IMG/VR virus record: IMGVR_UViG_3300018475_000095
Source of the DNA: a virus
Taxonomy: Duplodnaviria > Heunggongvirae > Uroviricota > Caudoviricetes
Strand: one strand, 5' to 3'
Length of the DNA: 64,000 nt
Of the stretch, positions 27,231 to 57,600 are shown piece by piece. Numbering within the stretch: the first letter of the stretch is position 1; each line of letters opens with the position of its first letter. The notes below the pieces were generated by a model, which saw only the letters and a program-made list of their open reading frames with translations, was not told where the DNA came from and searched no databases. The translations under genes were made by a program, and so were the position numbers.

Positions 27231-27938
27231 TTAATCTAATGGGTGCATTAGATTTGAATTATTGACTAATTCTTCTCTAAGAGCTGTTAATTCAGTATTA
27301 CCTTCTTCTAACATCTGCTCACCATCCATAGTCCATAATGCATTTGATTGAGTATATCTTGTTCTAATTCTACCTAATGCAATCTTTCCTTGAGCAACTG
27401 ATAGTCTACATAATTTATCAATCCAATAATCAGATACAATTTCATTTACATCATCATATCTAGGTACATATTCTATTGTTATTTGCTCTGGATTATCAAA
27501 AGCACAGTTGATATATAAAAAGTTTTTTGATTTATCATAATGAAAATCTAAATCAGTTGAGATTGTATTTCTAATTTGCATTGCTGTATTCCAAGCTGCA
27601 AAATTATAAGCAAAATCTGGACTATAATACCCATTTCCTGCTCCACTTAACATCTGCCATTGAGCCATGTACATTGGGTCTTGACCGCCAGATGTTTGTG
27701 CAGCACTACCATATCCTTTAGTCCTATATACTCTATAGACTGAACTTACCTTCTGGTCAGATAAATCAATACATCTATGATAAGGGATAGTTGCTAATTT
27801 AGTGGTATTTATATATCTTTGAATTTCTCTTAAAGAAATATTTATTAATTGTTTTAAGGCTTCATCATCTAATTCTAAATCTAAAAGTCCACCAGATAAT
27901 TGAAATTTTAAGTTATCTACATAACCTTGCATATCCAT
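27231..27938 (-). CDS. Neck/head-tail adaptor (gp13-like)
   Basis: LDLELDDEAL..., KIALGRIRTRY...MDGEQMLEEG..EL..LREEL pattern. Confidence 0.7.
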   Translation of the reverse strand: MDMQGYVDNLKFQLSGGLLDLELDDEALKQLINISLREIQRYINTTKLATIPYHRCIDLSDQKVSSVYRVYRTKGYGSAAQTSGGQDPMYMAQWQMLSGAGNGYYSPDFAYNFAAWNTAMQIRNTISTDLDFHYDKSKNFLYINCAFDNPEQITIEYVPRYDDVNEIVSDYWIDKLCRLSVAQGKIALGRIRTRYTQSNALWTMDGEQMLEEGNTELTALREELVNNSNLMHPLD

Positions 27939-27966
27939 TAAATGATTAAAACCTCCTTATATTATT

Positions 27967-28028
27967 TCAAGATAATTGGATTTGAACCAATATCTCAATC
28001 ATTGTGTTTTACCTTAAACTATATCTTC
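27967..28028 (-). ncRNA. tRNA-like element lacking the anticodon loop
   Basis: GAAGATA/TATCTTG acceptor stem (6 of 7 pairs), T8A9, D arm GTTT-AAGGTA-AAAC, T arm ATTGG-TTCAAAT-CCAAT; only CAATGATTG where a 17-nt anticodon arm belongs; no encoded CCA. Confidence 0.7.
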
Positions 28029-28042
28029 AAAAAGATAAGACT

Positions 28043-28069
28043 GGCTGATTGGAGGTAAATCAACCAGCC
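28043..28069 (-). terminator. Terminator-like hairpin after decoration gene
   Basis: GGCTGGTTG/CAATCAGCC stem (one G-U) followed by TCTTATCTTTTT. Confidence 0.6.
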
Positions 28070-28095
28070 TCACTTTATTTTTTATTTTTTAAAAT

Positions 28096-28533
28096 TTATG
28101 GAGTTACTACTATTTCTTCTTGAGTAACTTCTAAACCTTCAGTTGCTTGTGCTAAGTAATATAATACTTGACCAACATTTGTAGCTGTTAATTGAACTTC
28201 ATCCCCAGCTGCTATATCATATTGGAAATTTTCTCTATAAGGAATAAATCCAATTATTTTTGCTGAAGTGTTATTTAATGTAATTAATGCTGGAGTATTT
28301 AATTTAATAGTTGTATCATCTTCTGTGTAAGTTTCTACTACTGTAACTTCTAAGCCTGTTGTAGCTTGATTTAAATAATATAATACTTGACCTGATGTTT
28401 TAACTTCAAATTCTAATGCTTGACCAGCTGCTAATTTAGTTGTAAAGTTTTCTTTATAAGCTTGAAATGTTTTAGCAAATTCTGAAGTGTTAGCAATTCT
28501 TATAATTGCTGGAGCTGTAACTATCATTTCCAT
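28096..28533 (-). CDS. Probable capsid decoration protein with internal duplication
   Basis: Two similar halves (GQVLYYLNQATTGLEVT / GQVLYYLAQATEGLEVT); directly after major capsid gene. Confidence 0.55.
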   Translation of the reverse strand: MEMIVTAPAIIRIANTSEFAKTFQAYKENFTTKLAAGQALEFEVKTSGQVLYYLNQATTGLEVTVVETYTEDDTTIKLNTPALITLNNTSAKIIGFIPYRENFQYDIAAGDEVQLTATNVGQVLYYLAQATEGLEVTQEEIVVTP

Positions 28534-28568
28534 TCTCTCTTTCTCTCCTTAATTTTATATAAGTTTTT

Positions 28569-28596
28569 GATTAGCTAGTTTTTAAACTAGCTAATC
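28569..28596. terminator. 13-bp inverted repeat downstream of major capsid gene
   Basis: GATTAGCTAGTTT-TT-AAACTAGCTAATC. Confidence 0.55.
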
Positions 28597-28620
28597 TTAT
28601 CTTATATTTATATACAGTAA

Positions 28621-29928
28621 TTAGGCAGTAACTCTACCTGAAACTAATAGATCTTTGTTAAGAAGTCTTAAGTCATACATTGTAGAGAAGCCTTGGCTCA
28701 TACCACCATCAGCATATCCTAATAATTGAGTTGGGATAACTGGCATATATGGAGCATAAACTGCTGCTGATGTTTCTAAATCTGAACCATTAACACCAAG
28801 AACAAATTTACCTGGTTCGATGTTTGGAGTAACATATACTTTTAATCCATCTAATGTACCAGCAAAGTAAGGACCATTAACTGTTGATGCTGGTGCTGCT
28901 GAGAATGCTTTAACCATAGATAAGATAGGTAAGATGTTTGAAGCTACTAACATATAGTTAGGTGCAAATCTTTTTGTTCTATCATAGATTTTTTGTTTAG
29001 CAATTGCAACTATTTCAGTAAATCCTTCATAGTGTTCCATTTTGCTTACGCCAATTGGTAATGTTTTAGACCATACTAAATCACCATCTGCATCTGCATT
29101 GTTGATTAATAAGTCTGTAACTTCTGTATCGATTTCATAATTTAATTGTCCAACAGCTTTTTGAGCTAATTGATCACCAAGATCGAAACCATAATCTTGT
29201 TTTGCTTGGTAGTTAGCGATTTGTGAGTAGTAAATAGCAATTCTTCTTGCTTTAGCTGCTAAAGCGATGCTTTCCATTCTAGCATTTAAAATTGGTAAAT
29301 CGTTTTGTGGGATTACAACGTTATCATAAACATATCTAACTTTGAATTCTGCATCTTGTTGAACTCCATCACCTGCTAATGTAACAGCACCTGTTTTAGC
29401 ATCGTCAACTGTGATTGTAACACCTGCTGCACCAACTACTTCTGGTTTAACTGTTTCTGTATTAACAACTGGGAACCAAGCTAATGTTGCTTTTCCTTGT
29501 GCATCTACTTTAACTGTTTCAACTACTCTTTCTGATGTATAATTAACATCTACTTTACCAAGTCTGAATGGATCGTTGAATACTTGACCTTGAGTTGTTT
29601 CACCTTTATTTGAACCAGCTGTGTATTGAACATAAGTGATATATCCAGTCATACTTGACATTGGTTGTACCATAACTAAATCAAATGCGATTAAATCTGG
29701 TAATGCTACTGTAACTAAGTTTAATGTAAATTTCTTGAAATCTCCTAAGTTAGCTCTTTGAGTACCTACTGAGTTTTCAAAAGCTTCGTTCATGAATTTT
29801 GATGTGTTTTCTAAACATTTTGCAATAACTAATTTTTTATGTTGAGGCATAGCTTCACTGTGTGATTTGCTATAAACACTTTCTGAAATTGCAAGTCTTT
29901 TAGAATAAGCTTCTAATAATGTTGCCAT
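28621..29928 (-). CDS. Major capsid protein (T4 gp23-like)
   Basis: LIAFDLVMVQPMSSMTG, EIDTEV, GSDLETSAAVYAPY motifs. Confidence 0.9.
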   Translation of the reverse strand: MATLLEAYSKRLAISESVYSKSHSEAMPQHKKLVIAKCLENTSKFMNEAFENSVGTQRANLGDFKKFTLNLVTVALPDLIAFDLVMVQPMSSMTGYITYVQYTAGSNKGETTQGQVFNDPFRLGKVDVNYTSERVVETVKVDAQGKATLAWFPVVNTETVKPEVVGAAGVTITVDDAKTGAVTLAGDGVQQDAEFKVRYVYDNVVIPQNDLPILNARMESIALAAKARRIAIYYSQIANYQAKQDYGFDLGDQLAQKAVGQLNYEIDTEVTDLLINNADADGDLVWSKTLPIGVSKMEHYEGFTEIVAIAKQKIYDRTKRFAPNYMLVASNILPILSMVKAFSAAPASTVNGPYFAGTLDGLKVYVTPNIEPGKFVLGVNGSDLETSAAVYAPYMPVIPTQLLGYADGGMSQGFSTMYDLRLLNKDLLVSGRVTA

Positions 29929-29947
29929 TTTAATTTTCTCCTATTTA

Positions 29948-31435
29948 TTATTTTAAATTTGCGAGTCTTAATAAACTATCATCTACTATATCGTTTGGAT
30001 TAGTTTTTAATAAAGGCTCTTTACTTTCTTGTATTTTTATTCTTCCTTTTTGTAAGTCTAAAGGTAAACTACTTACTGTTAAATTAAAATTACTTAAACT
30101 TTCACATATTTCATCTATATCACTAAACGAATAATTTTCTGAAAGTTTGTTTTTAATTTCATTAGCATTTATACCTAATCTTAAAGCTTGAGATTCAATA
30201 TATTTATTCACTGCAGTTTTAGCAGTTTTTCTATATTGCTCAACTAATTTATTGGCATTAGCTAATTTTGAATTATATTCATTTGTTTTAATAGTAAGAT
30301 TTTTCTTAACTTCTTCTAAGCTTTCATTTAAAGAATTTTCTCTTTCTATTGATTCTTGTTTAAAGGATTTAAATTCTTCATTCAAGTCTCTTATCATAGT
30401 TTCTTTTTCTTTTAATTTATTTGCTTGAGATGAAATTGATTCATTTAAACTAGATTGTCGATTTATATCAATTCTACGTTTTTCAACAAGTTTTTGATAT
30501 TTATCTTGTTCTTGTTTAATTATTAAATCTTTTTGATTTAATTCTTCGGTAAGTTTCTCAACTTTCCCTTGTAATGCTTTCGCATTAGTCACACTTTCAC
30601 TCAAATTTCTGACAGCATTTTTAAGTTTTACTATTTCCTCTTCATACTTGGCTTCTTTCGCATAGCAAACTGATAGCTTTTCTTGGAGTCCAGTCATGTG
30701 AGCTTCAAGTTTTCTTTGTGCAAGAAGAGACTCTTGCAAGTCTTTAACCATACTAGCTCCAGTATCTTTGGCTGCTAATTCTGATTTATCTATAACCTTT
30801 TCAGGTGTATATTCAATATTTAATTTATCGAGAGTTTCTTTCATTACAACTCTTTCATCTTCTGTTGCTCTATCTAATTGTTCACATAAAGCTTGTTTTA
30901 ATGATTTACCATTTTGTACTGATTCAACCATTTTAAGTCTTGCTGATTTAACTGCAGGTAATAAAACAATATCCCATGCCTCTAATTTATAAGTATCTTC
31001 ATCGACATGTTCACCATCCATTGCTTCATAAGTTTCGCCAGAGCCTCTAGAACTAATACCTAATTTATATCCATATTTTGCTAATGTAGCAACTATTCTT
31101 CCATTAGGTGTATCAAGAATATCTAAATAAGCTTCCAATTGACCATCTTTATTCTTTTTTGGTTTTTCAGGCATACAAACTGCAACTTGCGATAGATCTG
31201 TTTCTTCTCTATCAGAAGGGTGATTTAATTCGCCAAGCAACCCACCGCATTCAAAATATTCATTAACTATTGGATCATTGAAAACTTTTTCCCAAAGAGC
31301 ATCATCATATTTTCTACCATTACGAGTTGGATTAACAACATCAGCAACAGTGCCATATAATCTTCCTAGGATAGCTTCACCTTTTGAATTTTGTTTTACA
31401 CTATCGTCTAACTTTAATTCTTCTTTCTTAACCAT
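29948..31435 (-). CDS. Prohead protease (gp21-like) fused to coiled-coil scaffold
   Basis: NPTRNGRKY, LGELNHP, LGISSRGSG, WDIVLLPA, then a long coiled coil with repeated LxES sites. Confidence 0.9.
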   Translation of the reverse strand: MVKKEELKLDDSVKQNSKGEAILGRLYGTVADVVNPTRNGRKYDDALWEKVFNDPIVNEYFECGGLLGELNHPSDREETDLSQVAVCMPEKPKKNKDGQLEAYLDILDTPNGRIVATLAKYGYKLGISSRGSGETYEAMDGEHVDEDTYKLEAWDIVLLPAVKSARLKMVESVQNGKSLKQALCEQLDRATEDERVVMKETLDKLNIEYTPEKVIDKSELAAKDTGASMVKDLQESLLAQRKLEAHMTGLQEKLSVCYAKEAKYEEEIVKLKNAVRNLSESVTNAKALQGKVEKLTEELNQKDLIIKQEQDKYQKLVEKRRIDINRQSSLNESISSQANKLKEKETMIRDLNEEFKSFKQESIERENSLNESLEEVKKNLTIKTNEYNSKLANANKLVEQYRKTAKTAVNKYIESQALRLGINANEIKNKLSENYSFSDIDEICESLSNFNLTVSSLPLDLQKGRIKIQESKEPLLKTNPNDIVDDSLLRLANLK

Positions 31436-31468
31436 TCTGATAAATTTCCTGTAATTATTTTAGTTTTC

Positions 31469-31482
31469 TAATAAATTTAGCA
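31469..31482 (-). promoter_or_regulatory. Putative phage late promoter motif TGCTAAATTTATTA (copy 1)
   Basis: Exact 14-mer also at 51396 and 58771, each just upstream of a structural gene start. Confidence 0.55.
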
Positions 31483-31530
31483 TAAAATAATTGTATTTTA
31501 TTTTAAATAATAAATTTAACAGTATTATAA

Positions 31531-31698
31531 TTAAAAACTTGATAATTTATTATTAATATTTACTTTTATTTCTTTAGCTGTTTCTTCTTTAATTTCAGTA
31601 ACTTCTACTTTAGCTCTTTTAATTTTCTTTTCTTCTTTTTTTGCTTGTTTAGCTAATTTCTTCTCTAATTTTTTTGCAATTTTCATTTCTGTATTCAT
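31531..31698 (-). CDS. Small Lys-rich protein
   Basis: Start MNTEMK at 31698 after GGAGAG; 55 aa. Confidence 0.45.
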   Translation of the reverse strand: MNTEMKIAKKLEKKLAKQAKKEEKKIKRAKVEVTEIKEETAKEIKVNINNKLSSF

Positions 31699-31709
31699 TT
31701 TTCTCTCTC

Positions 31710-32162
31710 CTATTCCTTTATACTTTCTAATGCTTTTAAATCTACTTTTATAATTCTTAATAGTCGTAAACAATTGGTTAAATCATAAGTTTTGAAATAA
31801 TTATTTAACACAGCTGTTATTTCAGAACTTCTAGCATGTTTTAAAAACATTTGTTTATCTTCAACTTGTCTTGCGTATAATAATATTTGAGTTAACATTG
31901 ATGAAAGAGTAGTTAAAACTTCATTTGTATCCTCTATTTCTTTAACTATATTTTTATAAAGATTAGATTTTTTATTATTGTAATTTTTTCTTAGTCTTTC
32001 ATAAAATGCAGCAACATCTAATTGCCTATTATCATTTATAAATTTAATAACAGATAAAGGTAAATTAAGAGATGAAATTAGTTCTTTAGTTGCTTCAGTA
32101 GTATCTATTCCTTTTTCTTCAATATCTGCTAATAAAATTAAACAATCATTTTTAGTTATCAT
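31710..32162 (-). CDS. Hypothetical protein downstream of portal
   Basis: Start MITKND after AAGGAG; 150 aa. Confidence 0.55.
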   Translation of the reverse strand: MITKNDCLILLADIEEKGIDTTEATKELISSLNLPLSVIKFINDNRQLDVAAFYERLRKNYNNKKSNLYKNIVKEIEDTNEVLTTLSSMLTQILLYARQVEDKQMFLKHARSSEITAVLNNYFKTYDLTNCLRLLRIIKVDLKALESIKE

Positions 32163-32197
32163 TGTATTATCTCCTTCCAATATAATTGGCTAGTTTA

Positions 32198-34072
32198 TTA
32201 AAATTCTAAATTATTATCTGTAAAATCTTCGCCTTCACCCGCTTCTTCAGGTGTTGGTAAAATATCTTCTTCCTCTTCTGGAGAAATTTCAGTTTCAGTC
32301 TCTAATCCTAATTCAGTGTCTAAGTCTAATGGTTCATTTTCTCCAAGTCCAATATCACTGCCTATGTTACTAGAACTACCTAATCCTAAATCTTCTTCCT
32401 CTTGAGAAGTTTCACTTAATCCTGGTTGCTCTAATTCATCTATCTGTTCTTCTAATAAGCTTGTTATATCTGAATCTGATATAACATTAGATAAAAGTAT
32501 TTTTAATATTTTAAGTTTTGTTGCTGGATTATCTACATCAGTTAAAAGATCCATGACATCTCTTACGATACCAATTCTTCCAACAGTATTTTCTCTTCTA
32601 TCAATTTCTTCTTGAGTTGTTGGTGGTTGCATTTTAATAGTAAACTTACCTAAGTAAGATTGTAAGCCTTTATCTATTAACATTAAATTAATAACATCAG
32701 TTATGCCTTGAATAACAGTGTTTTGGATTCTCTTTATTGCTTTAGCATATCTTGAAGATATAATTGCTAAAGATTGACCACCACTAAATCCTGCACCATC
32801 ATCAGTAAACCCAAAATATTGTTTAGGTACCCTTAATGCACCATAATATTTATTAGTAAAATAATCAACATCAGGTAATTGACCTACATTTACATCTCCA
32901 CCTATTTGGTTTGCTGTAATTGAACCCTGGCCATTATGAGTTGGTACATAAATATTATTTTCAATAGGTCCTGGGTTAGTGTAATCAGACATTGAATTAC
33001 CAGCATCAATTGCTGATTTTTGTTCTATTAATTGTTTTATACCTGCTAAATAACCTCTGACATCTTCTTTTGGCATATCACCAATTTCAACATTGATCAC
33101 TCTTGTAATAGATGATTTAGTTATTCTGTTTAATAGCATTGAGTTTTCTAATAAAGATAATTCACGCCATATTTTAAATACGTTGTATAAAAGGGACTGA
33201 CCACGTTTGACGGTGTACTCTGTACCATTATCTTTCTGTAAAGCATTGTCATCTCTAAATAATTTTACTTTTTCAGGTATTCTTGATGTGTTGTCTTCGA
33301 GAGCGGCATGAACAAATTTATCTCCATTATAAATATTTATATCATCTTTTTGGAATCTATAACTATAAGAAGTTGTTATTAAATTATTTTTATTCTTTGC
33401 TATTGTTCCGATATCTGTTTGTATAAAGCCAGCTGTTTTGCCAAATCTAGTTAATTCAAAAGTTGTAGCGGGATTTGGAACTGCTTCTATATAATGTACA
33501 TAATGATCAGTTGTTTTATAAAGATTTATATCTATAGCTTCTTTAAGAGATTTTCTCTTTTGAATATCTTCATCAGTTTCTTTATTTGCATTTGTATTGA
33601 AGAACTCGTCATTATTATATTCAGATTCTTTAAATAATTCCCAATAAATATCACCATATTTAATCAATGAGTAAACCCATTTATAAATATTTTTATCTAC
33701 CTTTAAACTTTTTAATAGATAAGTAATATATTTATTTACATTTGCATCATCAGATTCTGACCAAACAATTTCTCCATTTTCATTATATTCAGTAGCATCT
33801 TCTGCATATGTTTCTAATACAGCAGCAACTGTTGGATCATCACCCATCGTATCTAATAATTGGTATAGCTGATCTCGTGTCTGACTTGCTTGGTCAAATG
33901 AATTGATTGCAGATATATCTATTTTGCTACTATCACCTATCTCTGCTATTACCGAAGCAATACCTCGCTCTGCTAGATCAGTATCACTTTGTTGAGGTTT
34001 AGGAATAGGTCTTATCTTTTTATTATAATTAACTTCATCATCTATTACAGCTGAATCTATTTCATTAGGCAT
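32198..34072 (-). CDS. Portal protein (T4 gp20-like)
   Basis: DPTVAAVLETYAEDAT, LIKYGD, LSLLENSMLLNRITKS, DVDYF..KYYGALRVP motifs; next to terminase. Confidence 0.9.
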   Translation of the reverse strand: MPNEIDSAVIDDEVNYNKKIRPIPKPQQSDTDLAERGIASVIAEIGDSSKIDISAINSFDQASQTRDQLYQLLDTMGDDPTVAAVLETYAEDATEYNENGEIVWSESDDANVNKYITYLLKSLKVDKNIYKWVYSLIKYGDIYWELFKESEYNNDEFFNTNANKETDEDIQKRKSLKEAIDINLYKTTDHYVHYIEAVPNPATTFELTRFGKTAGFIQTDIGTIAKNKNNLITTSYSYRFQKDDINIYNGDKFVHAALEDNTSRIPEKVKLFRDDNALQKDNGTEYTVKRGQSLLYNVFKIWRELSLLENSMLLNRITKSSITRVINVEIGDMPKEDVRGYLAGIKQLIEQKSAIDAGNSMSDYTNPGPIENNIYVPTHNGQGSITANQIGGDVNVGQLPDVDYFTNKYYGALRVPKQYFGFTDDGAGFSGGQSLAIISSRYAKAIKRIQNTVIQGITDVINLMLIDKGLQSYLGKFTIKMQPPTTQEEIDRRENTVGRIGIVRDVMDLLTDVDNPATKLKILKILLSNVISDSDITSLLEEQIDELEQPGLSETSQEEEDLGLGSSSNIGSDIGLGENEPLDLDTELGLETETEISPEEEEDILPTPEEAGEGEDFTDNNLEF

Positions 34073-34090
34073 CTATCTATAAATCTCCTT

Positions 34091-37000
34091 TTAACCTCAG
34101 AATATAATCCCATCTCTTAATGCAGATGGCTTATAAGGTGTAGCTGAACCAAATCCAAAATCTATTGGTTTAAACGCATTAGAATTAGATTGGTTATTTT
34201 CTTTAAATTTAGCATTATTTTCTTGTTTATTTTCAATAGAACTGCTTTTATCTAATATTTTTTGCTTTTGTTTTGATAGAGGATCTAGTAAATTTTTTAT
34301 CTCTTCTTCAAATTCTATATTTATTTGTTTTTTAGTATAACTATCATTTGCTGTAGCATTACTTACTTGTAATGTTGTATCTAAACTTTCTCCGAAATCA
34401 AAAGCAAATTGTTCTGCATTTTTAGATGCATTAAATAATGCTCCACATACAGCATCGCACACGTCTTTTCGTCCACCATCAGGGTGATCTACTTTTCCAG
34501 TATTTATATTTCTTTCTAGATCTATAATTTCATCAATTAAAGTTTTAGAATCATATATTTCTAGTCTTTTCTCATAAATTGTAGATTTAAAATTTTGATA
34601 AGGTTTACATATATGATCTGAATCTACTCTATCAACAGATAAAACACTATACTTATATCCTTTAGCAAGTAATGCTTGACCTGTATCATAACTTTGGAAA
34701 GTATCTGTCGTGATACCTTGAATATTAAATCCTTGTTCTTTTAACCAATAAATAAAATTTCTATTCTTTTCAAAAGATATTTGATATCCTTTTGGTGCTT
34801 TAATCGAAACTGAAAAAGCAAGAGTATAAAATAAATCATTTGATTGATTTTCAGTTGTACTTAGTTTTTTACCTTTAATCCAAACACCTGCAATACCAGT
34901 CATATCTCCGCTTACTGACATATCTAGATGAATAAACAAAGGTCTACTCTTTAATCTTTTATTTACTTTACTTAAATCAAATAAATCATAGTATTGTATC
35001 TTATCTTCTTGACTATTTCCTATTTCTAATATATCTTTAATAAATGGATTTTGTAATTCAAGATTTTTAATTTCTTGTACTGCAACACCAGAAATATATT
35101 TACTAATTTCACTTGATGATATACCAGCAAAGTCACATAATGCTCTTTCAATATCATCTAAAAAGTTTGATTTAAAATCTATAGGAACTTCAATTATTTT
35201 ATAGCCTTTATCTCTCCATATATCTACATCATCATTAGTAGGTATAACTTGAGACATCAAGAACTTATTTCCTAAAGCTACATTAAATGTTTCTTCTTTA
35301 TAAGTACCTTTTGGCTTAACTTTCCAAACAGGTTCATCAACAATTAAAACATTTTCTTTCTCAGATTTTAATTTCTTTTTAATATGCTCTTCAAGGAATG
35401 ATTTTTCACTTCGTTTCGAAGATGCTAAAGCAAGTAAAGTAGGATTTATACCTTTATAAATAAACCTTGTTTTCATACCCCCAATAGCGGTATCAATCAT
35501 ATTAATTGCTTTTTCTTTTTGTTTATCTATATCTTGATTTCTCATAAATGAAATTTCATCAAAGAAAGCAAAGAAAATAGGCAAACCAATCAAGTCATCT
35601 GCTTGGGAACCAATTATTATATTGATATAATCAGGTGGAACCCATTTTAAATTAGTCCTACCTTCCATAGTTCCTCTTGCCATAAACCATGGTGAAAGTT
35701 TTACTGTGTTTTGAAATTTACTAATACCAATTTCTTCTGCTAAAGCTAATTTAATATTCATAAAAGCAAAACATATTTTTTCAGTTGGTTTTAAGTGAAA
35801 AAATTCAATTGGGTTTTTCAAGCACATTATCCTGTACATTAGATAACAAGCAACAGCAACAGCGATTTCGGAATTATGTGTAACTATACAATTATCAGTT
35901 AAATACAAATGATCATCACTATTAATCATTATGCATTGACATTCAACTTTTCTAGACAATTCAATTGATTCTATAGCTCTACTAGGATTTAAAGAATTAG
36001 GATTAATTCTAGATAGTTTTCGTGATAATTTAAATGGTTTTATTTCTTTAGGTAATTTTATAGAGATAGTATAGCTTGTATTACATTCTATAACTTTCCC
36101 ATCTTTTTTATATTTACCTGTAACTTCTTTGTATTGAGCTACACCACCTAATGATTGTACTAGATAAATAAAATTGTCACAAAGTTGTGAACTGATTGTA
36201 TTAAATTGGATTGTTGATCCATTTTTTGTTATTGTACCATCAGTATCCATTAATCCTTGTAATAATTCAATTCTATCTTCGACTGAGCTATGTAAATAAA
36301 TATTTGGTATAAATTTATCAGCTGAAGATTTTATCAGATTTAAATCATGTAATGCTTCAACAAAAGGATTTGGTTCGGCGACAGGATTACCTTTAGGACC
36401 AACAGTAAATTTTTTTACTTTTTGAGAAAATATATATCCATACTTACATGATGGTAATGGGCTTATTTTTATGTTATCAAATGTTTTATCTAATTTATTT
36501 GATATATAATCGATTAATTCTTTATCTGCACTTGTTAATGAACATGAGTTTCTTCGGATACAGCCATCGCCTAAAATTACCCCTAATATATATGGATCAA
36601 TTAGTAGTTCTTTTTTCTCAAACTCAATTGGCTTAGTTACAGGTATATAATAAAGATGTTCTTTATATTTACCTTGTTTTACCTTAATTAATGGTTTGTC
36701 GAATAACTCTTGCAAATGAATAGTTTTCTTATACTTATAATTATTTTTTGGCAAAATTGTCCAAAGATGTTCTTTACAACATTCAGTAGTTGTTTTATCT
36801 GTAAAAGTTATTTTATAAACATCTTTAACACCTTGCGGAAAAATATGAGTGACGATATGTGGCTTACCATCCGCTCCAATTACATTCATACCAGGTTTAA
36901 TTGATCCCATAGGAATAAACCCATCAGATGTCATAACTTTACTATCTAATGGTTGTGCTTTACCTAAACCTCTTGCTCCTGATTCAATAAATGTATTTAC

Positions 37001-37276
37001 ACTAGTTGAAATATTATCCGGAAATAATTTTTTTAATTTTTCTCTTCAAAAAGGATATAATTTAGATTTACCTTCAGCATCATGTCAAGCATGTCCTAAA
37101 TAATTATTGTCATCTAAGAATGTTTCTATGTCTACGGGTATCTCGTTATAATCTGCGTATTTTAAATCTTCAAATACTTTAGAGGTACCTTCTTTTGAAA
37201 ATTCTTCTAAAATACTTAAAGCTAATTTTTTCTCTTCTTCTGAAAGATTATTTAATTCATCGAAATTATAAGTCAT
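34091..37276 (-). CDS. Terminase large subunit, 1061 aa precursor with intein; three in-frame TGA read as Trp
   Basis: One frame from ATG 37276 (AAGGAG) to TAA 34091 apart from TGA at 37085, 37046 and 34097; Walker A GARGLGK|S, FFDEIS Walker B, HLDMS and KDVCDAVCG nuclease motifs. Confidence 0.9.
35873..36958 (-). mobile_element. Class-3-type intein with LAGLIDADG homing endonuclease (362 aa)
   Basis: Starts Ala (GLGK|AQPLDSKV), ends VTHN|S; block B HLW, block F CQCI, block G T (WCT triad); LGVILGDG and LQGLMDTDG LAGLIDADG motifs. Confidence 0.9.
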
Positions 37277-37301
37277 TGGCTACATAATCTCCTTATCTTA
37301 T

Positions 37302-44908: not shown

Positions 44909-46981
44909 CTATAAATTTTCAATGCCTGCGGCTTCTATAAACTCTTCATAAGTATAATTATATCTAATTGGTGCGTATGAGCCATTTCCTAGTTTATTAA
45001 ATTCAGTTGGCAATACAGATGATTTACTTGAAGAAGCTGTGTATATAACTGCATTGTCTTCATGTATACCAAAAAAGCTATTTAAAAATCTTTGGTCTGC
45101 ATATTGGTTTGTTTGAGGATTAAATGTTGTTATATTAGCTAAATCATAAAAATAAATATTTAATGGTTTTTCAGGTTCATAAGCTGATCTATAAAAGCAG
45201 TTAGCACCGATAGATTTAACAGTTGCAGGAACGATAATTAAATCTAACTTAGCACAAGGTCCAAAAGCATCCACTGCAATAGATGTAACTCCATCTGGTA
45301 TAATTATTCTTTGTATAGTATGGTCACAGTAGATTGCATGCTTTCCTATTGTTTTTAAGTTACTTGGTAATTGAAGAGATGTTAGATTTGTGCTTGTAAA
45401 ACACCTTTCACCAAGACTCAGCATAGAATCTGGAAGTAAAACATTTTCTAAATCAAAACAAGAATCAAATAAATAATTGGAACTATTTACATGACAAGCA
45501 GATATGTCTACTGATTTCAATGATTCGCAATAATAAAACGCTCCTTGGTTTATATTTCCACCTAAAACAACTAAATTTGTTAAAGAGTTAGGTAAATAAT
45601 AAGTTGTAGAGTAGTTATTGTAGTTACGAGCATCATAAGTTAAATCACTTGATGCAGTCCCGCTGAATAAAATAGCAAATGCTGTATCTGTAGAATAGGT
45701 TGTAGCAGTTCCAGTTGTCCCAACAAATGGTATAGTTAAGTTAGTCAAAGATGTACAATTTTTTAAAAGACCCGCTGTTAAACTAATAATAGATGTAGGT
45801 ATATATAAATCTGTCAAGCCACTGCAACCAGAGAATACATAATTGCCCAAAGATGTAATTGTATCTGGTATAGTTATATTTTTAAATCCTGTACAATTAT
45901 TAAAAGCATAACTTCCAATAGATGTAACAGAACTTGGTAGATTTAACTCTGTTAAAGATGTACAACCACTAAATGCATAATCACCGATACTTATTAAATT
46001 ATCATGCATATTTACATTAGTTAGATTAGTACAATTTTGAAAAGCATAATTACTTATATTAGTTATATTATTTGGAATTGTTATAGAAGATATATTTGAG
46101 CAACCTGAAAAAGCAAAATTTCCTATTGTGCTCAATGTTTCACATACACTTAAATCTATATTTTTTAATATAGTACAATTTTGAAAAGCTTTATCTGCTA
46201 TACCAGTAACTATATAATCAGCACCAGATTCGAAAGTACTTCTATACCCTATCATTTCTATTAATGTATCTACTGGCTGTGACATCATTTTGGATTGTAA
46301 CTCTGAGTAATTATTAAATTGCTGTTCACCAAAATACACAGGATAAGATAGTAATCTTGGTATATTCCAAAGAGCACCTGTTGAACCTTCTTTAGCTTTA
46401 AAAGATATTAATTTTGCGTCAGTTGGAAAATCAGTAGTTAAATTATTATATAATTCACTTGCCGTAGCGTATGTTTTTGAATTGGTAGAATTACTTAAAG
46501 TTATGTCATAGATTGCATCTTCACCGTTACTTATTATATTAGACCATATCCAGTTATAGCTATAATTTAAATCAGCACCTATAATTGTCTCAACTGAACC
46601 AATACTATATGTTCTAGGGATTACAATATTTTCATCTTCTCCTATATAATCAGTTATCAACCCTGCATCATTAAACATAAATAAACTTGCGTCTGTTGTG
46701 TAAGCATCATCACTTATAGCATCTATTGATATATTGTTTCCAAAATTAACTACAAAAGAAGAATTTATTTTTATTGATTTATTATTTAATTTAGCTTTTG
46801 ATAAAAAGTAACCATCATCAGGTGTAATTTCTATAGTGTAGTTTCCTAGAGATAACACTTTTTTACCCTGAGATATTTCATGTCCGTTCTCGTCTTTAAC
46901 TACAACAGATGTGTACTCAGAATTGATTATTAAATCACCTCTATAATTATCTGTTATTTGACTGCCTAATTTAATATTCAT
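44909..46981 (-). CDS. BspA/TpLRR (LRR_5) leucine-rich-repeat protein
   Basis: Repeats such as ITIPNNITNISNYAFQNCTNLT and LPSSVTSIGSYAFNNC. Confidence 0.9.
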   Translation of the reverse strand: MNIKLGSQITDNYRGDLIINSEYTSVVVKDENGHEISQGKKVLSLGNYTIEITPDDGYFLSKAKLNNKSIKINSSFVVNFGNNISIDAISDDAYTTDASLFMFNDAGLITDYIGEDENIVIPRTYSIGSVETIIGADLNYSYNWIWSNIISNGEDAIYDITLSNSTNSKTYATASELYNNLTTDFPTDAKLISFKAKEGSTGALWNIPRLLSYPVYFGEQQFNNYSELQSKMMSQPVDTLIEMIGYRSTFESGADYIVTGIADKAFQNCTILKNIDLSVCETLSTIGNFAFSGCSNISSITIPNNITNISNYAFQNCTNLTNVNMHDNLISIGDYAFSGCTSLTELNLPSSVTSIGSYAFNNCTGFKNITIPDTITSLGNYVFSGCSGLTDLYIPTSIISLTAGLLKNCTSLTNLTIPFVGTTGTATTYSTDTAFAILFSGTASSDLTYDARNYNNYSTTYYLPNSLTNLVVLGGNINQGAFYYCESLKSVDISACHVNSSNYLFDSCFDLENVLLPDSMLSLGERCFTSTNLTSLQLPSNLKTIGKHAIYCDHTIQRIIIPDGVTSIAVDAFGPCAKLDLIIVPATVKSIGANCFYRSAYEPEKPLNIYFYDLANITTFNPQTNQYADQRFLNSFFGIHEDNAVIYTASSSKSSVLPTEFNKLGNGSYAPIRYNYTYEEFIEAAGIENL

Positions 46982-47031
46982 CTATTATCCTCTTATAACA
47001 TAAGTTAAGTATTTCTATAAAACTATTTTAA

Positions 47032-47679
47032 TTATATTCTTGTTATTGTTAATGCATTTAATACTTCTAATGCTGTTATATTATTTTCAGTAGTAGTTAA
47101 CCCAACTGCTTGTAACTGCTCTGAATCATTTCTTGTTATAGTTACATTATCAACTTCTGCTTTAATTTCTTTATATGTACCATCATCAGAAAGATATTTA
47201 GTTCCATCTCCATTATTAATTAAAACGGATGTAGTAGTTTCTAATATAGAGATGTCTTGTTCTATGTTAGATATATCTCTTTCTGCTTCAACTATATCTG
47301 ATTGCACAGTATTTAGACCATTAATCAAATCATCTAATGAGCTATCTATCTGACTAAATTTTTGTGCTATATTTGTCCCAGTGCTGTCGGTTTCTGCTGA
47401 TGTTTTTGTTATGTCTTCCCAAGAATCCCCAGTAAATTTATATAAATTTCCTTTTATATACGTTCCATCATCAGCACACACAAAGACTTCATTTTTATTC
47501 ACAAAAGCTCTTATGAGAACATTATTTAAAATCTCTTGCATTTGATCATTTGTTATACCACTATTAGATGGAAAATCTTTAACTATATAAAGTTTGTCTT
47601 TATCTAGAGTTTCATTTTCAATTATTTGATTTATATCACCGTCAGATATACCTTTTAAATATTGCTCTGTAATAGTCAT
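47032..47679 (-). CDS. Fibre adaptor protein with coiled coil
   Basis: DDGTYIKG..YKFTGDSWEDIT module, heptad segment, GDGTKYLSDDGTYK and VDNVTITRN..LQAVG fibre motifs. Confidence 0.55.
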   Translation of the reverse strand: MTITEQYLKGISDGDINQIIENETLDKDKLYIVKDFPSNSGITNDQMQEILNNVLIRAFVNKNEVFVCADDGTYIKGNLYKFTGDSWEDITKTSAETDSTGTNIAQKFSQIDSSLDDLINGLNTVQSDIVEAERDISNIEQDISILETTTSVLINNGDGTKYLSDDGTYKEIKAEVDNVTITRNDSEQLQAVGLTTTENNITALEVLNALTITRI

Positions 47680-47691
47680 TTATGAATTCCT

Positions 47692-48051
47692 TTATAATTT
47701 TATATTGATTGTTAAATTATCTGTTACGCTTTCTATAAAAATGTTTCCATTAGAGTACACTATAGGTGTAATATTTAAGTTACCCATAAGTATCTCAACT
47801 ACAGCATTACTAATATCATAGCCCTCAAATGCAGTTATAGTAGCAGAAAAAGATTTTCTATCTAAGATATAATTAACTAATGTAGAACTAAAACAATTAG
47901 TTAAATTATAATCAACTTTAAATACTTTTCTAGCTTCTGCAATAATAGTTATATTACCATCTAATGGGCTGACTAAAATAGATGCAGCTTCACATTCTTC
48001 TGGTATTATTAACTTATTTTCAGCAAATAGTTGAATATTAATTCTCTTCAT
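47692..48051 (-). CDS. Small beta-rich protein with N-terminal INIQLFAE motif
   Basis: MKRINIQLFAENK; C-terminal part resembles bacterial B-repeat modules. Confidence 0.45.
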   Translation of the reverse strand: MKRINIQLFAENKLIIPEECEAASILVSPLDGNITIIAEARKVFKVDYNLTNCFSSTLVNYILDRKSFSATITAFEGYDISNAVVEILMGNLNITPIVYSNGNIFIESVTDNLTINIKL

Positions 48052-50917
48052 TTCCTACCTCTTCTTTTACTCTATACCAATAAGAAGTGACATAGTCACT
48101 TTTAAAATATTGAGCATTTAAACTTGCATCAGTTAAATCCACTTCTTCCCCACCAGTGTAATTTACATTAGTAGTCCTGTACCATCTACCTTCTCCTAAT
48201 ATATTTAATGTTGTAAGATTAGGACAATTATTAAAGCAATTATTTCCTATTTTTTCAACATTCTCATTAATAGTAATTTGTGTTAAATTTGCACAGTTAC
48301 TAAATGCACTTCCTTTTATAATTTTTACAGATAAAGGTAAATTTGCAGATGTAAAAGTACAATAACTAAAAGTTTGATAACCGATCTCTTCTAAAGATTC
48401 AAATCCATCTGGTTTAATACCAGATGATTGAAAACAATAATCTTTTGCTACTTTCAATTTAGGGGCTGTAACACTACTGAATTTATTACTACTAAACACA
48501 TAGTTACCAGCAGTGATTAAATTTGGGAAAGTAGCTACTTTATTTAAAGTTGAACTAACACCTGAAAAACATGAATTATCTAAAAATTCTAATTGGTTAT
48601 TAGATGGTATATTTAAAGATGTTATATAAGTTATATAATCTGTAGCTCTTTCTCCTATATATCTTAAACTTGATGGTATAGCCAAAGAAGTTATTCCTGC
48701 ATCCATGAATGATAATCCAGTTATACCTAAGAGACCATTAGGTAAAGAAACAGTTCTCAAAGCGGTTGCATCATGAAATCCTTCATGAATAAATTTACAA
48801 GAAGAATGAACGGTCATCGAAGAAGGAGTACTTGTTCTTCCTATCATTATAAAGTAAGCGTTTGAAACACTTCTTAAATACTTACCATATGAATATGTTG
48901 TATAAGGTAAACTTGTACATCCTCTAAATGCATAATTCCCTATATAAGTTATAGTATCTGGGATTCTTATATTAGATAATGATGAGCAGTTGTAAAACAT
49001 GTCATATGGAATAGATGTCATACTATCTGGCAAGGTTGCACTTCTTAAAGATGTTTGGCCCTCAAAAGTTCTTCCATAGTGATAATCAGGGTTACATCCA
49101 TCTTCAAAAGTACAAGAAATTAAGGTTGGGGTATAAGAACTAGTACCTTTTCCCATAACATAGTCTCCTAAATATTTTAAAGATTTAGGAAAGGTTATTG
49201 TTGTTAATTTATTCTGATATGCTAAAGCATAGCTATCAATCTTATTTATATTAGAATCTGCTTCAAAAACAAATGAAGATAAATTTATGCAACTTACAAA
49301 TGCATGTTGTTCTATGGTTTCAACACTCTTTGGTATAATTATTGAACTCAAATTTGGACAGTTGCTAAAACATGAAGTGCCTATAGTTTTACAAGAAGAA
49401 TTTATTTCGAATGTGCAAGTAACTATATTTGATTCCCTGAACGCTGCAGACCCTAATGACTCAACAGTATTAGGTATATTGATAGAACTTATCTTAGATA
49501 AATAAAAAGCAGAGCTTCCAATCTTTTTTATACCCATATCTAAAGGTATGATACTATTTTTTGTGCCTAATAATAAAATATTATTTGTAGTATCTATAAG
49601 ACAATTATTAACTGACACAAAATTTTTATTATGTAATACTTCTATAGTTTCTAAACTAGATGTATCACTAAAAATTCTCTCAGGTATTTCTTCTATGTTA
49701 CTTAATATGGTTAAATTTTTTACATTATTAGAAAAAGCATTTGCTCTAATTGCTTTTACTTTAAATTCAGATCCTTTGCCATAGGAATCAATAACCCCTT
49801 CAAAATTTATAGCAGTAGGAGATGTGTTACGCCACTCTATATATAAATTAGAATAAGTATCATATCTCACATCATTATAGTAAACAGGGTATATTAAAGC
49901 GTTAGCTATAGAATAATAAGCATTATTATTAGTTACATCGAATGAAATTAATTCAGCATCCTGATCTGGAAAATCAATATTTATACTATCATAAAAATCC
50001 ACTCCAGTGGTGTAAGTAATTTCTTTAGTTGAATTTTTTACAGTTATATTATTTGTATAATTTCTAAAGGAATAAATTTGAGAATAATCAAATTTACAAG
50101 TACTCACTGATATTTGATCAACGATAGAATAAGATCTTGGTATAACTATATTTTCTGAAGAGCCTACATATTTTGTTAAAGTATTCCCATCAAATTCAAA
50201 CAATGCAGGGTCTGTAGCTTCTGGGTCAAAAAATACTGATATTTCACTTATATCAACACCATTTTTTAATACTTTTATATTATCAAAATAATAACCTTCA
50301 GGAGCAATTAATTCACTCGAGTATTCATTTTTAATACTTAAAGCTGGGTTTTCTTCTAGTTCACAATCAGTTAATATAGCTTCTATTGAATAAGCGGTTA
50401 TAGATGCTTTATTTGTATTACCTAAATTATCTTTTGCCCAAACATAATAAGTACCTAAAGAATCAACTTCATACTCTCCTTCTAATTGTGTTTCAAGCCA
50501 GTAATCAGGTACCTCAGCATCTCTAGTTATATTATACCCAATGATTGGACTTTCATCAAAAATAGACCATTTAAAAGTAGTATTAGATATAGGAATAATA
50601 CTTATATTTAGGCCAACCGCTTCTACTGCTTCGCATATTATGTTTATATTTAAATCATTTTCAGGAAAAGTGCCGGGTTTATATAGAAATTTTTCACCAT
50701 TATTATATGGTATATTATTTATAAATATAGTTCTAATTTTAAAATCAGTATTAGGAATAGCATTTATAGTATAACTCTCATTATAAATCAACTTATTATT
50801 TCCAGGAGTAATTATATTGCCATTTGAATCTATTAATTCTATAATGGCATTTAATGCTTGCTCATTTAAATTACCTTTTAAATTAGATACTACTTTATCA
50901 CCTATTATAAATGCCAT
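48038..50917 (-). CDS. Large BspA/TpLRR protein (959 aa)
   Basis: Many xIPxxxxxIxxxAFxxCxxL repeats; N-terminal Ig-like modules (YYVWAKDNLGN). Confidence 0.9.
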   Translation of the reverse strand: MAFIIGDKVVSNLKGNLNEQALNAIIELIDSNGNIITPGNNKLIYNESYTINAIPNTDFKIRTIFINNIPYNNGEKFLYKPGTFPENDLNINIICEAVEAVGLNISIIPISNTTFKWSIFDESPIIGYNITRDAEVPDYWLETQLEGEYEVDSLGTYYVWAKDNLGNTNKASITAYSIEAILTDCELEENPALSIKNEYSSELIAPEGYYFDNIKVLKNGVDISEISVFFDPEATDPALFEFDGNTLTKYVGSSENIVIPRSYSIVDQISVSTCKFDYSQIYSFRNYTNNITVKNSTKEITYTTGVDFYDSINIDFPDQDAELISFDVTNNNAYYSIANALIYPVYYNDVRYDTYSNLYIEWRNTSPTAINFEGVIDSYGKGSEFKVKAIRANAFSNNVKNLTILSNIEEIPERIFSDTSSLETIEVLHNKNFVSVNNCLIDTTNNILLLGTKNSIIPLDMGIKKIGSSAFYLSKISSINIPNTVESLGSAAFRESNIVTCTFEINSSCKTIGTSCFSNCPNLSSIIIPKSVETIEQHAFVSCINLSSFVFEADSNINKIDSYALAYQNKLTTITFPKSLKYLGDYVMGKGTSSYTPTLISCTFEDGCNPDYHYGRTFEGQTSLRSATLPDSMTSIPYDMFYNCSSLSNIRIPDTITYIGNYAFRGCTSLPYTTYSYGKYLRSVSNAYFIMIGRTSTPSSMTVHSSCKFIHEGFHDATALRTVSLPNGLLGITGLSFMDAGITSLAIPSSLRYIGERATDYITYITSLNIPSNNQLEFLDNSCFSGVSSTLNKVATFPNLITAGNYVFSSNKFSSVTAPKLKVAKDYCFQSSGIKPDGFESLEEIGYQTFSYCTFTSANLPLSVKIIKGSAFSNCANLTQITINENVEKIGNNCFNNCPNLTTLNILGEGRWYRTTNVNYTGGEEVDLTDASLNAQYFKSDYVTSYWYRVKEEVGNEEN

Positions 50918-54102: not shown

Positions 54103-54351
54103 CTACTCCTTAATTTCTTCGAATATGTCGTCAAAGCCTTCTTTCTCAATTTTAGTTTCTAGAGAGAAGTTAGGTTTGAATCCATAACCCATAAACATAT
54201 TATTAACGTATTCGTTACTCAAGTACCACTTATTGTTTGTATAAATAAAAGTACCCTCATTATCAATTAATGTTAATTCATTACCATTTGCTAATATATT
54301 ATTAGATATATTTTTAAAAGGTATTTTTATTTCGTCTTTTACCTTGAACAT
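54103..54351 (-). CDS. 82-aa hypothetical protein overlapping 3' end of DGR RT
   Basis: ATG 54351 after AAGGAG; overlaps RT by 38 nt. Confidence 0.5.
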   Translation of the reverse strand: MFKVKDEIKIPFKNISNNILANGNELTLIDNEGTFIYTNNKWYLSNEYVNNMFMGYGFKPNFSLETKIEKEGFDDIFEEIKE

Positions 54352-55327
54352 GTATATACTCCTTTATATAACCTTCAAATGAACCTTTATAATTGGTGTA
54401 TTGGTTGCTATTTATCCCATATTTTGATCTAAGGTATTTCTCTTTTCTAAATAAGTTCTTTCGAGTTTTATATGAATTTTTATTTGTTATTTTACCATTA
54501 GATTGTAAACGGAATTGAATTTTTAACCAAGTAAATTGTTTTAATTTACTGATAGTTGTCTTATTTTTATTTATAATTATTTTTAATTTATTACAAACTT
54601 CGTATATTACTCGCAGACAGTTTTTTAATTCTTCTTTACTACTGCATATCAGATAACAATCATCTACATATCTACCATAAAATTTAATATGTAATTTTTC
54701 TTTGATTAAATGATCTAACTCATTAACATAGAACAAAGAATTTATCTGCGAAATTTCGCTTCCTAATGCTATTCCTTTCTCTCTACTGGCTTTCTCTATA
54801 AAATGTTTATACAGATTATATATCTTATCGTCTTTTATATAATTTCTTGCTTTACTTAATAGAATATTATGATCTATATTATCAAAATATTTGCTAAAAT
54901 CTATCTTTAATATATAACCTTCATTAGTATGATATCTTTTATAGTATTTATTTAAATGTACAAATAATCTATCTAAAGTAAATATATAGCCTTTACCATT
55001 TATTGTAGCTCCATTATCATATATTAAGGATCTTCCGAGTAGATTGTTTAAGTAATATCTACATAAGCATTTTTGTACAATTCTTTCACTAATATGTGCA
55101 GCTTTTATATTTCTAGTTCTTCCTCTGCAGCTTTTAGTGAATTCAAAGTATCCAGGTGATTTGTAACTCCCAGCATGCAATTGTCTAAATATTCTATTTA
55201 CTAATCTATGCTTTTGAATTTCAAAATTTTGGATGCTTTGCTTTCATCTAACATTTCTAAAGCATAGATTAGCACAAACCAATAAATTTTTATATGTAAA
55301 AACTTCTTTAAAAGTTTTATTTTTCAA
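54314..55327 (-). CDS. DGR reverse transcriptase, 337 aa; in-frame TGA (Trp) at 55244
   Basis: TTG start 5 nt after AGGAGA; NVR*KQSIQ; AAHISERIVQK, YDNGA..GKG, LKIDFSKYFDNIDH, LGSEISQ, YGRYVDD motifs. Confidence 0.93.
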
Positions 55328-55481
55328 TATAATCTCCTATGTAATATTAGTTACTCCTAATCTTGAGTAAAATATATTAGGAGGTTTTTATTTTTAGCTT
55401 TTAATTGCTATGGAAGTGCGGTTCCTTTTATTAATTTAGCCGGTTTCAATAAATATCTACTATGTCTGGCATTATTTAAGT

Positions 55482-55588
55482 AAAATCAGAGAGGAACATA
55501 ATTACTATTCGTCATATTGTTGTTGTTCGAATAACCATTGTTGTTCCAATTACAGAAATTGTTCGAAGAAGAGTTAACGTAAGGGTAT
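55482..55588 (-). repeat. DGR template repeat (TR), 107 bp
   Basis: Aligns gaplessly to 56072..56178 (offset 590); 13 AAY codons in the VR frame; 16 mismatches, all at TR adenines. Confidence 0.97.
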
Positions 55589-55607
55589 AATCAACCGCAC
55601 ACCAATG

Positions 55608-56003
55608 TTATTTTGAAACTCGTTTCTTATCCGAGTTTATAACACCTTTAATTAATTTTTCTAGGTAGTCAGTTTTTTCAAATATCTTATTAAGCATTCC
55701 ATCTGTGATAGTATTATTATACTCCAATATGCATTCAAATTCAATAGAGAATAAATTTAAAGTGTGTAGAGCTTCTGTCAATAATTCTCTTCGTTTTTCA
55801 AAACTTGTTGTCAAATCACATTGATTAGCAAGTACGCAACATTGCATAACTCTATCTATTAATTTAAATGTTGATTGTAGCCCATAGAAAGTATATTTTT
55901 TAGAGAATTTATTAACAATAGTGCTTGCTACTAATTTTCTAAGCATAACACTTTCATAAACATATTGAGTTTTACTTAATGTTCTCATATACGATGGAAC
56001 CAT
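55608..56003 (-). CDS. avd: Accessory variability determinant (Avd-like four-helix bundle), 131 aa
   Basis: ATG 56003 after AAAGGA; between VR and TR; ANQCDL...KRRELLTEAL..L...LIKGVINSDKKR pattern. Confidence 0.85.
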   Translation of the reverse strand: MVPSYMRTLSKTQYVYESVMLRKLVASTIVNKFSKKYTFYGLQSTFKLIDRVMQCCVLANQCDLTTSFEKRRELLTEALHTLNLFSIEFECILEYNNTITDGMLNKIFEKTDYLEKLIKGVINSDKKRVSK

Positions 56004-56028
56004 GTTAAAATTTCCTTTTATATACTCA

Positions 56029-56050
56029 CTGTTCACCTTTCGGCGAACAG
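56029..56050 (-). other. DGR target-recognition hairpin with GAAA loop downstream of VR/IMH
   Basis: CTGTTCGCC-GAAA-GGTGAACAG, 13 nt past the target stop codon. Confidence 0.85.
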
Positions 56051-56063
56051 ATTATTTAGATTA

Positions 56064-57374: not shown

Positions 57375-57375
57375 A

Positions 57376-57600
57376 TTAATTATTTCCTCCAAATGCTAAT
57401 GTAGATAAAATACTGGATAATTCTTCTAAATTTTCTTCTGAATAATCCTGTTCATTTATCGTGTAATTTGTTTTATATAATTTAAAAGTCATATCATAAA
57501 ATTGAACAGCATCTTTAAATGTCATATCTCCCATTGAAACACATGACATAAGATTAAAGGTACTTCCAGAAGATGGACTTTTTACTATAACTTGTCCCAT
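57376..57600 (-). CDS. 74-aa hypothetical protein upstream of DGR target
   Basis: Start MGQVIVK at 57600 after GGAGG; coupled to neighbours. Confidence 0.5.
   Translation of the reverse strand: MGQVIVKSPSSGSTFNLMSCVSMGDMTFKDAVQFYDMTFKLYKTNYTINEQDYSEENLEELSSILSTLAFGGNN

Follow-up and report, generated by a model that had tools for sequence, protein, structure and literature searches.

A large uncultured gut phage encodes, before its neck gene, a 62-nt tRNA-like element that retains the acceptor stem, D arm, T arm and core nucleotides of a tRNA and has lost the anticodon arm. The element is real and lies within the window, i.e. the whole 64,000-nt stretch of IMG/VR record IMGVR_UViG_3300018475_000095 that was analysed (Table 1); its sequence and position, and its conservation and covariation among related phages, were observed directly. 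The best explanation, to which we assign a probability of about 0.5, is by analogy a cis-acting t-element that would be cut by host RNase P, and perhaps RNase Z, to split the capsid-region mRNA from the neck mRNA.

Table 1. Positions of the tRNA-like element, the upstream hairpin and the neighbouring genes in the window.
Feature	Position	Strand	Remarks
Anticodon-less tRNA-like element	27967..28028	-	62 nt; Rfam tRNA model match, covariation
Acceptor stem, 5' strand	28028-28022	-	
U8-A9, followed by D arm (4-bp stem, 6-nt loop)	D arm 28019-28006	-	
Anticodon-arm remnant replacing positions 26-44	27996..28005	-	10 nt; 4-16 nt and unconserved in relatives
AGAT variable region, directly before T arm		-	
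T arm (perfect 5-bp stem, TTCAAAT loop)	27991-27975	-	
Acceptor stem, 3' strand	27974-27968	-	
Discriminator A	27967	-	
Stable 16-bp hairpin with U-rich tract, terminator-like	28035..28073	-	Anti-Shine-Dalgarno (anti-SD) sequence in loop
Anti-SD loop motif ACCTCC	28051..28056	-	Complementary to neck-gene ribosome-binding site
U-rich linker, 5' leader of element	28029..28034	-	Predicted RNase P cut 28029/28028 (inferred)
Neck-gene Shine-Dalgarno (SD) sequence	27951..27957	-	GGAGG core 10 nt past discriminator
Neck (head-tail adaptor) gene, T4 gp13-like	27231..27938	-	235 aa; phrog_211, PF26809
145-aa two-repeat protein gene	28096..28533	-	Next gene upstream in every element-bearing locus
Major capsid protein gene, gp23-like	28621..29928	-	phrog_138

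The phage genome comprises about 154 kb with 28% G+C and encodes T4-like head genes, including a terminase, portal, protease, gp23-like capsid and gp13-like neck protein. Terminase, SNF2 helicase and reverse transcriptase are complete only in code 4, so that the phage is recoded, as a preliminary description of this DNA had supposed, and reads TGA as tryptophan; TAG recoding was rejected, since TAG, like TAA, acts as a true stop. Gut phages of Firmicutes recoded at TGA have been described (10.1101/2021.08.26.457843). Contigs with related neck genes had been binned together with Acholeplasmatales, Lachnospiraceae and other Bacillota, and a Bacillota host is therefore likely. The genes from capsid to neck (27231-36000, minus strand) contain no in-frame TGA and the terminase has some, and close relatives carry three to four TGA codons in the neck gene, i.e. 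recoding is patchy across the phage family. Two TGA codons are in frame near the start of the large terminase subunit (34091-37279, minus strand), which also contains a homing-endonuclease domain of the LAGLIDADG type, probably an intein.

The RF00005 tRNA model gave a 48.4-bit match at positions 27967-28028, above its gathering score of 29 and with an E of 2.7e-07 calculated over the whole window; this was the only match in the window among 4227 Rfam families, and its alignment shrank the anticodon arm to 3 bp with a 3-nt loop. ARAGORN called no tRNA in the window, the element included, and a covariance model search found no second copy there. The acceptor stem, T8-A9, D arm, AGAT region and perfect T arm with TTCAAAT loop listed in the preliminary description were all recovered on the minus strand where it had placed them, with the qualification that the acceptor stem has 6 rather than 7 bp, its first pair being a G-G mismatch; the spacing of about 10 nt between the 3' end and the ribosome-binding site was likewise confirmed. 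Like canonical tRNAs (RF00005), the element contains acceptor, D and T stems and invariant core nucleotides, including U8, A15-U48 and G46, and a discriminator. It differs in its relaxed D loop, its variable first pair, the absence of an encoded CCA (0 of 19 copies) and the absence of a 5-bp anticodon stem with a 7-nt loop, in place of which 18 copies examined contain an unconserved segment of 4-16 nt. Having no anticodon arm, an absence shared by its relatives, the element cannot decode, and it retains those parts of a tRNA, the acceptor/T helix and core, that are read by RNase P and RNase Z; both points had been anticipated from the window alone.

Among 133 distinct neck-gene loci, 18 contain the element, with neck identities to the window as low as 53%, and 115 do not. 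A covariance model built from 16 copies identified three further copies (57-77 bits) in five new phage lineages picked via the upstream gene. All 19 distinct copies occupy the same position before the neck-gene start, and the covariance model detected the element at no other position in 166 loci. Cloverleaf pairing across the copies is 92%, with changes on both sides of six pairs (four acceptor, one D and one T), and none of 500 shuffles matched this pairing and covariation score; covariation is seen in the acceptor and T stems and is weak in the D stem. U8, A14, A15, G46, U48, G53, U54, A58 and C61 are invariant in all 19 copies; contacts within the tRNA core are made at these positions, among them the 15-48 Levitt pair (PMC4201824). 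The acceptor pair A3-U70 is also invariant. One copy combines a G at position 9 with a changed 12-23 pair, a joint change also exhibited by natural tRNAs. The elbow is relaxed: the D loop of most of the 19 copies contains a single G, C56 is replaced by U in three copies and U55 by G in two. Furthermore, the discriminator varies (A, U or G) and the 1:72 pair varies or is mismatched. The anticodon-region segments (18 compared; 4-16 nt) share neither sequence, stem nor anticodon. Since the body is conserved and this segment drifts, selection maintains the body and disregards the decoding arm.

These comparisons indicate that the element is conserved and represents neither an assembly error nor a decayed tRNA. 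A close relative has an element of equal length with a different linker sequence, and a separately deposited contig (possibly from the same source) is identical to the window, so that the 8-nt loss does not stem from assembly; the relatives likewise lack an anticodon arm, and their covarying stems are not those of a randomly decaying sequence. In a neck-gene tree the copies fall into four groups, for which a single clade was not rejected (p-AU 0.48); several independent origins are thus unsupported, and as all copies may share one origin, their counts are not independent. A homologue of the 145-aa gene lies upstream in 18 of 18 element loci, compared with 5 of 108 other loci. Exact-pattern scans of viral contigs revealed no intact parent tRNA and, for the element itself, one locus that was already known.

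The 145-aa protein consists of two 70-aa repeats with invariant tyrosines and is single-domain in some relatives. Its gene had been described as a decoration gene, for which we found no support: despite a confident model (pLDDT 95), the protein matched no family and had no clear structural counterpart (best Foldseek E 0.14; best Z 4.8, rmsd 2.4 over 61 aligned residues). A weak resemblance to TRAP scored 0.76, below the chance range, so that an RNA-binding role is likewise unsupported. Between the capsid gene and the 145-aa gene lies a perfect 12-bp hairpin (28569-28596), which is terminator-like on the plus strand.

The hairpin directly upstream of the element had been described as a terminator; a stable hairpin with a U-rich tract is indeed present, but the anti-SD sequence in its loop had been missed, and the structure may have a role beyond termination. 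Measured in 16 copies, the parts follow one another as 145-aa gene stop, hairpin, U-rich tract, element, 7-15 nt, SD and start, with the neck gene starting 19-31 nt past the discriminator. Element and anti-SD hairpin form one module of about 140 nt. The hairpin loop contains CCTCC in 13 of 19 element copies, and the other six keep the element without an anti-SD loop. As the same hairpin precedes the neck gene in at least 16 element-less relatives, two of them with the 145-aa gene, the hairpin looks older, and the tRNA mimic would have been inserted into its linker. In 28 of 29 hairpins, CCTCC ends 0-1 nt from the stem's 3' arm, a geometry matching that of an H-type pseudoknot formed with the downstream SD, and the loop could form 4-9 bp with its own SD. 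Pairing with the own SD was not significantly better than with a permuted SD across all hairpins (p=0.16); the SD reads GGAGG in all 13 element loci with an anti-SD loop and in one of six without, these loci being related and not independent. Taken from sequence, it is plausible that the anti-SD loop locks the neck-gene SD via a pseudoknot. The CCTCC-loop hairpin had no match in Rfam, and an exact-pattern scan of viral contigs for it yielded none. Hairpins of this family also precede the neck gene in L072, L083, L105, L110, L126, L136, L145, L178, L219, L241 and L242; they occur without the tRNA-like element, and the context of CCTCC often resembles the 3' end of 16S rRNA.

Translational locks of T4 late genes pair the SD within the stem of a hairpin and are bypassed by an internal late promoter. 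The phage module is similar in that an upstream anti-SD sequence could mask the ribosome site of a late gene in long transcripts, and it differs in presenting the anti-SD sequence in a hairpin loop and in that no promoter motif was found between this loop and the neck SD. The motif GCTAAATT, a candidate late promoter of the phage family, occurs in intergenic regions before genes at 31481 and 51408 (minus strand) and, in about 20 relatives, ahead of the neck gene, and is absent from all 18 element loci; relatives with this motif appear to handle the capsid/neck boundary differently. A sigma-70 promoter within the D arm was rejected, since the TATAAT-like word is not conserved and promoter-like matches were at the level of shuffled sequences.

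Plant mitochondrial t-elements are non-canonical tRNA-like folds in long transcripts that adjoin a gene and retain the T arm and acceptor (PMC1920247), and have been proposed or shown to guide RNase Z or RNase P to the sites at which mRNA ends arise (Forner et al. 2007, PMC1920247). The phage element shares with this group a tRNA-like fold with a T arm and acceptor stem adjoining a gene, presumably within a long transcript, as we infer co-transcription from the gene layout. By analogy it would work most like a t-element, with the differences that it resides in a phage late operon, would depend on bacterial host RNase P/Z, has specifically lost the anticodon arm and is coupled to an anti-SD hairpin, and that cleavage at its borders, the defining trait of t-elements, is here a prediction. 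Among the functions considered in the preliminary description, an mRNA processing signal would best account for the fixed position, the conserved leader and the absence of CCA.

In such a scheme, the element in those late polycistronic transcripts that extend beyond the 145-aa gene and the terminator-like hairpin would adopt in vivo the acceptor/T helix and core known from tRNAs. RNase P of the host would cleave it at the 5' end (28029/28028), and a cut by RNase Z may follow 3' of the discriminator (27967). The upstream capsid-region mRNA would thereby end in a stable hairpin, and the neck mRNA would gain a defined 5' end, with either a leader of about 28 nt or the tRNA-like fold as a cap, so that expression of the low-copy neck protein could be tuned separately from that of the abundant capsid proteins. 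Cleavage would, in most lineages, also part the anti-SD loop from the neck SD and could turn translation on. As a more tentative extension, the anti-SD loop might silence the neck SD across the folded mimic until a cut by RNase P (or Z) removes the lock.

As regards recognition by RNase P, the copies retain the 12-bp helix and T loop, and A(-2) is present in 17 and U(-1) in 14 of the 19 copies, although the leader is generally AU-rich, which weakens the A(-2)U(-1) counts. Against recognition, G(+1) is present in only six copies and RCCA in none, and the copy in the window has U(-2) and a G-G first pair. C74, which may hinder RNase Z, occurs in 8 of 19 copies. Bacterial RNase P recognises its substrates by measuring the 12-bp acceptor/T helix and by contacting the T loop, with a preference for A(-2)U(-1); it cuts some bacterial mRNAs and phage RNAs, and non-tRNA substrates are considered unlikely to compete well with pre-tRNAs (PMC10731613). 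In Firmicutes, RNase Z trims CCA-less tRNA precursors (PMC8549757). Points against the processing reading are the relaxed elbow, the extended T hairpin computed as the preferred fold of most copies (see below), and the fact that most relatives (115 of 133) manage without the element.

Alternatively, the element might remain uncut and act as a structural part of the neck 5' leader, i.e. a protein-binding operator, a 5' stabiliser or a two-state switch setting the distance between anti-SD and SD, which we regard as rather unlikely. Because AGAT and the T stem resemble the 5' acceptor strand, AGAT can pair with the 3' acceptor strand to extend the T hairpin, and this fold is the ViennaRNA minimum in 14 of 16 copies (acceptor-stem probability 0.00-0.23), with tertiary contacts lying outside the ViennaRNA score. 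The extended hairpin is 98.8% paired across copies, nearly all of which can form both folds, and in one locus (L065) both partners change with the 3' strand. Furthermore, the cloverleaf joins its own ends, which would leave an effective linker like that of the element-less relatives with an anti-SD hairpin. However, only one of six extension pairs shows changes on both sides, compared with four of seven acceptor pairs, so that covariation favours the acceptor stem over the extended hairpin; alternation between the two folds is conceivable. An uncut element would also leave the conserved leader and the 7+5-bp helix length unexplained, and 6 of 19 copies keep the element in the absence of an anti-SD loop.

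Comparable doubt attaches to a function in trans, in which RNase P and RNase Z would excise a free RNA of about 62 nt from an abundant late transcript as a decoy or sponge for tRNA-binding host factors, such as tRNA-targeting defence nucleases or toxins, uncharged-tRNA sensors or modification enzymes. Phage tRNAs neutralise Retron-Eco7 and PARIS (PMC12673091), which provides a precedent. Similar anticodon-less folds are located in tRNA clusters of unrelated phages (L002, L005, L013, L020, L021, L030, L046, L052 and L055), one of them scoring 62.7 bits with the element model, and a place behind the capsid genes would be expected to provide high late expression. In contrast, the element is present as a single copy fixed to one intergenic spot 7-15 nt before the SD, with no phage-family promoter motif found beside it, and the elbow is relaxed at G18/G19 and C56. 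The anticodon loop, which anticodon nucleases generally read, is missing here.

Two readings without present function, a decayed tRNA and a relic suppressor tRNA, had been raised in the preliminary description; both, the latter as a TGA-suppressor tRNA-Trp, are largely refuted by the covariation. The phage does use TGA as tryptophan, and in-frame TGA occurs in 11 of 18 element loci versus 39 of 115 others, the element loci being mutually related. Nevertheless, the stems are kept by compensatory changes at 53-77% neck identity and only the anticodon segment drifts; none of the 18 segments contains a TCA or CCA triplet, let alone UCA in a 7-nt loop, 7 of 18 element loci lack a nearby in-frame TGA, and many recoded relatives lack the element. 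Equally improbable are a mini-tRNA that is aminoacylated for a role outside the ribosome and an integration site acting at the DNA level: tRNA 3' halves are commonly copied by integration sites, and the helix with its invariant A3-U70 is retained, but variation in the discriminator and the 1:72 pair argues against a charged species, CCA is not encoded, and both halves covary as RNA, which is unexpected for an attachment core.

The element was also compared with other tRNA-like RNAs. YrlA RNAs contain tRNA-like D and T arms without decoding function, and some are phage-encoded, and one YrlA RNA is cut by RNase P (PMC4201824). They are permuted, with the T arm first and a closed acceptor stem-loop that separates the T arm from the D arm, contain a Ro60-binding module and adjoin a Ro60 gene, here taken as within 4 kb (PMC4201824), unlike the element, in which 5' acceptor strand, D arm, T arm and 3' acceptor strand follow each other with open ends. 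No YrlA match was found among the 4227 Rfam families; the neighbours of the element are head/neck genes or unknowns, with no Ro60 match among the ORFs scanned in the window. Thus, the element is not a YrlA RNA, and its topology disagrees with the Y-RNA-like mimic suggested earlier. Phage and messenger RNAs with a 12-bp helix, with or without a T loop, share the helix and a single-stranded leader; they are either free RNAs or hairpins of a simple kind, and several have a 3' RCCA, whereas the element has a full D arm and core, no RCCA and a location in a virion-gene intergenic region.

In a pattern scan, 55 viral contigs, representing 32 distinct cores, contained a D arm connected to a T arm by just 10-22 nt, and the anticodon-less fold class is therefore widespread. 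These folds (L002-L056) derive from many unrelated phages and occur in tRNA clusters or alone, 3-50 nt before a gene on the same strand; two of them were called by ARAGORN. tRNA-like processing signals are already known from plant mitochondria. A literature search, from which subscription journals were mostly absent, and a survey of structured phage RNAs (PMC10690425) yielded no anticodon-less tRNA mimics in phage operons, and what appears to be new here is the coupling of a tRNA mimic to an anti-SD loop before a virion gene. If the element is cut as predicted, phages would split a late message by tRNA punctuation as known from mitochondria, using host RNase P/RNase Z. The stoichiometry of virion proteins would then be subject to a further, so far unrecognised level of control, and a function would be assigned to phage tRNA look-alikes that are missed by ARAGORN and filed as tRNA by Rfam. 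If the anti-SD lock also operates, host tRNA maturation would serve as a translational on-switch or timer for head completion. The module is small and self-contained, and natural variants with or without the loop or the insert provide ready controls.

Elsewhere in the window, the phage encodes a diversity-generating retroelement (54314-57392, minus strand). Its reverse transcriptase (54314-55336; Pfam RVT_1) is complete only with TGA read as tryptophan, the template repeat is located at about 55482-55588, and the variable repeat, which changes at adenines, at about 56072-56178, at the end of an ORF spanning 56064-57392; an additional ORF (55608-56036) occupies the place expected for the accessory protein. 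Furthermore, long ORFs contain diverged coding repeat arrays at 61355-62427 (spacing of about 120 nt) and at 45263-49341 (69-nt spacing), the latter resembling the leucine-rich repeats of surface proteins.
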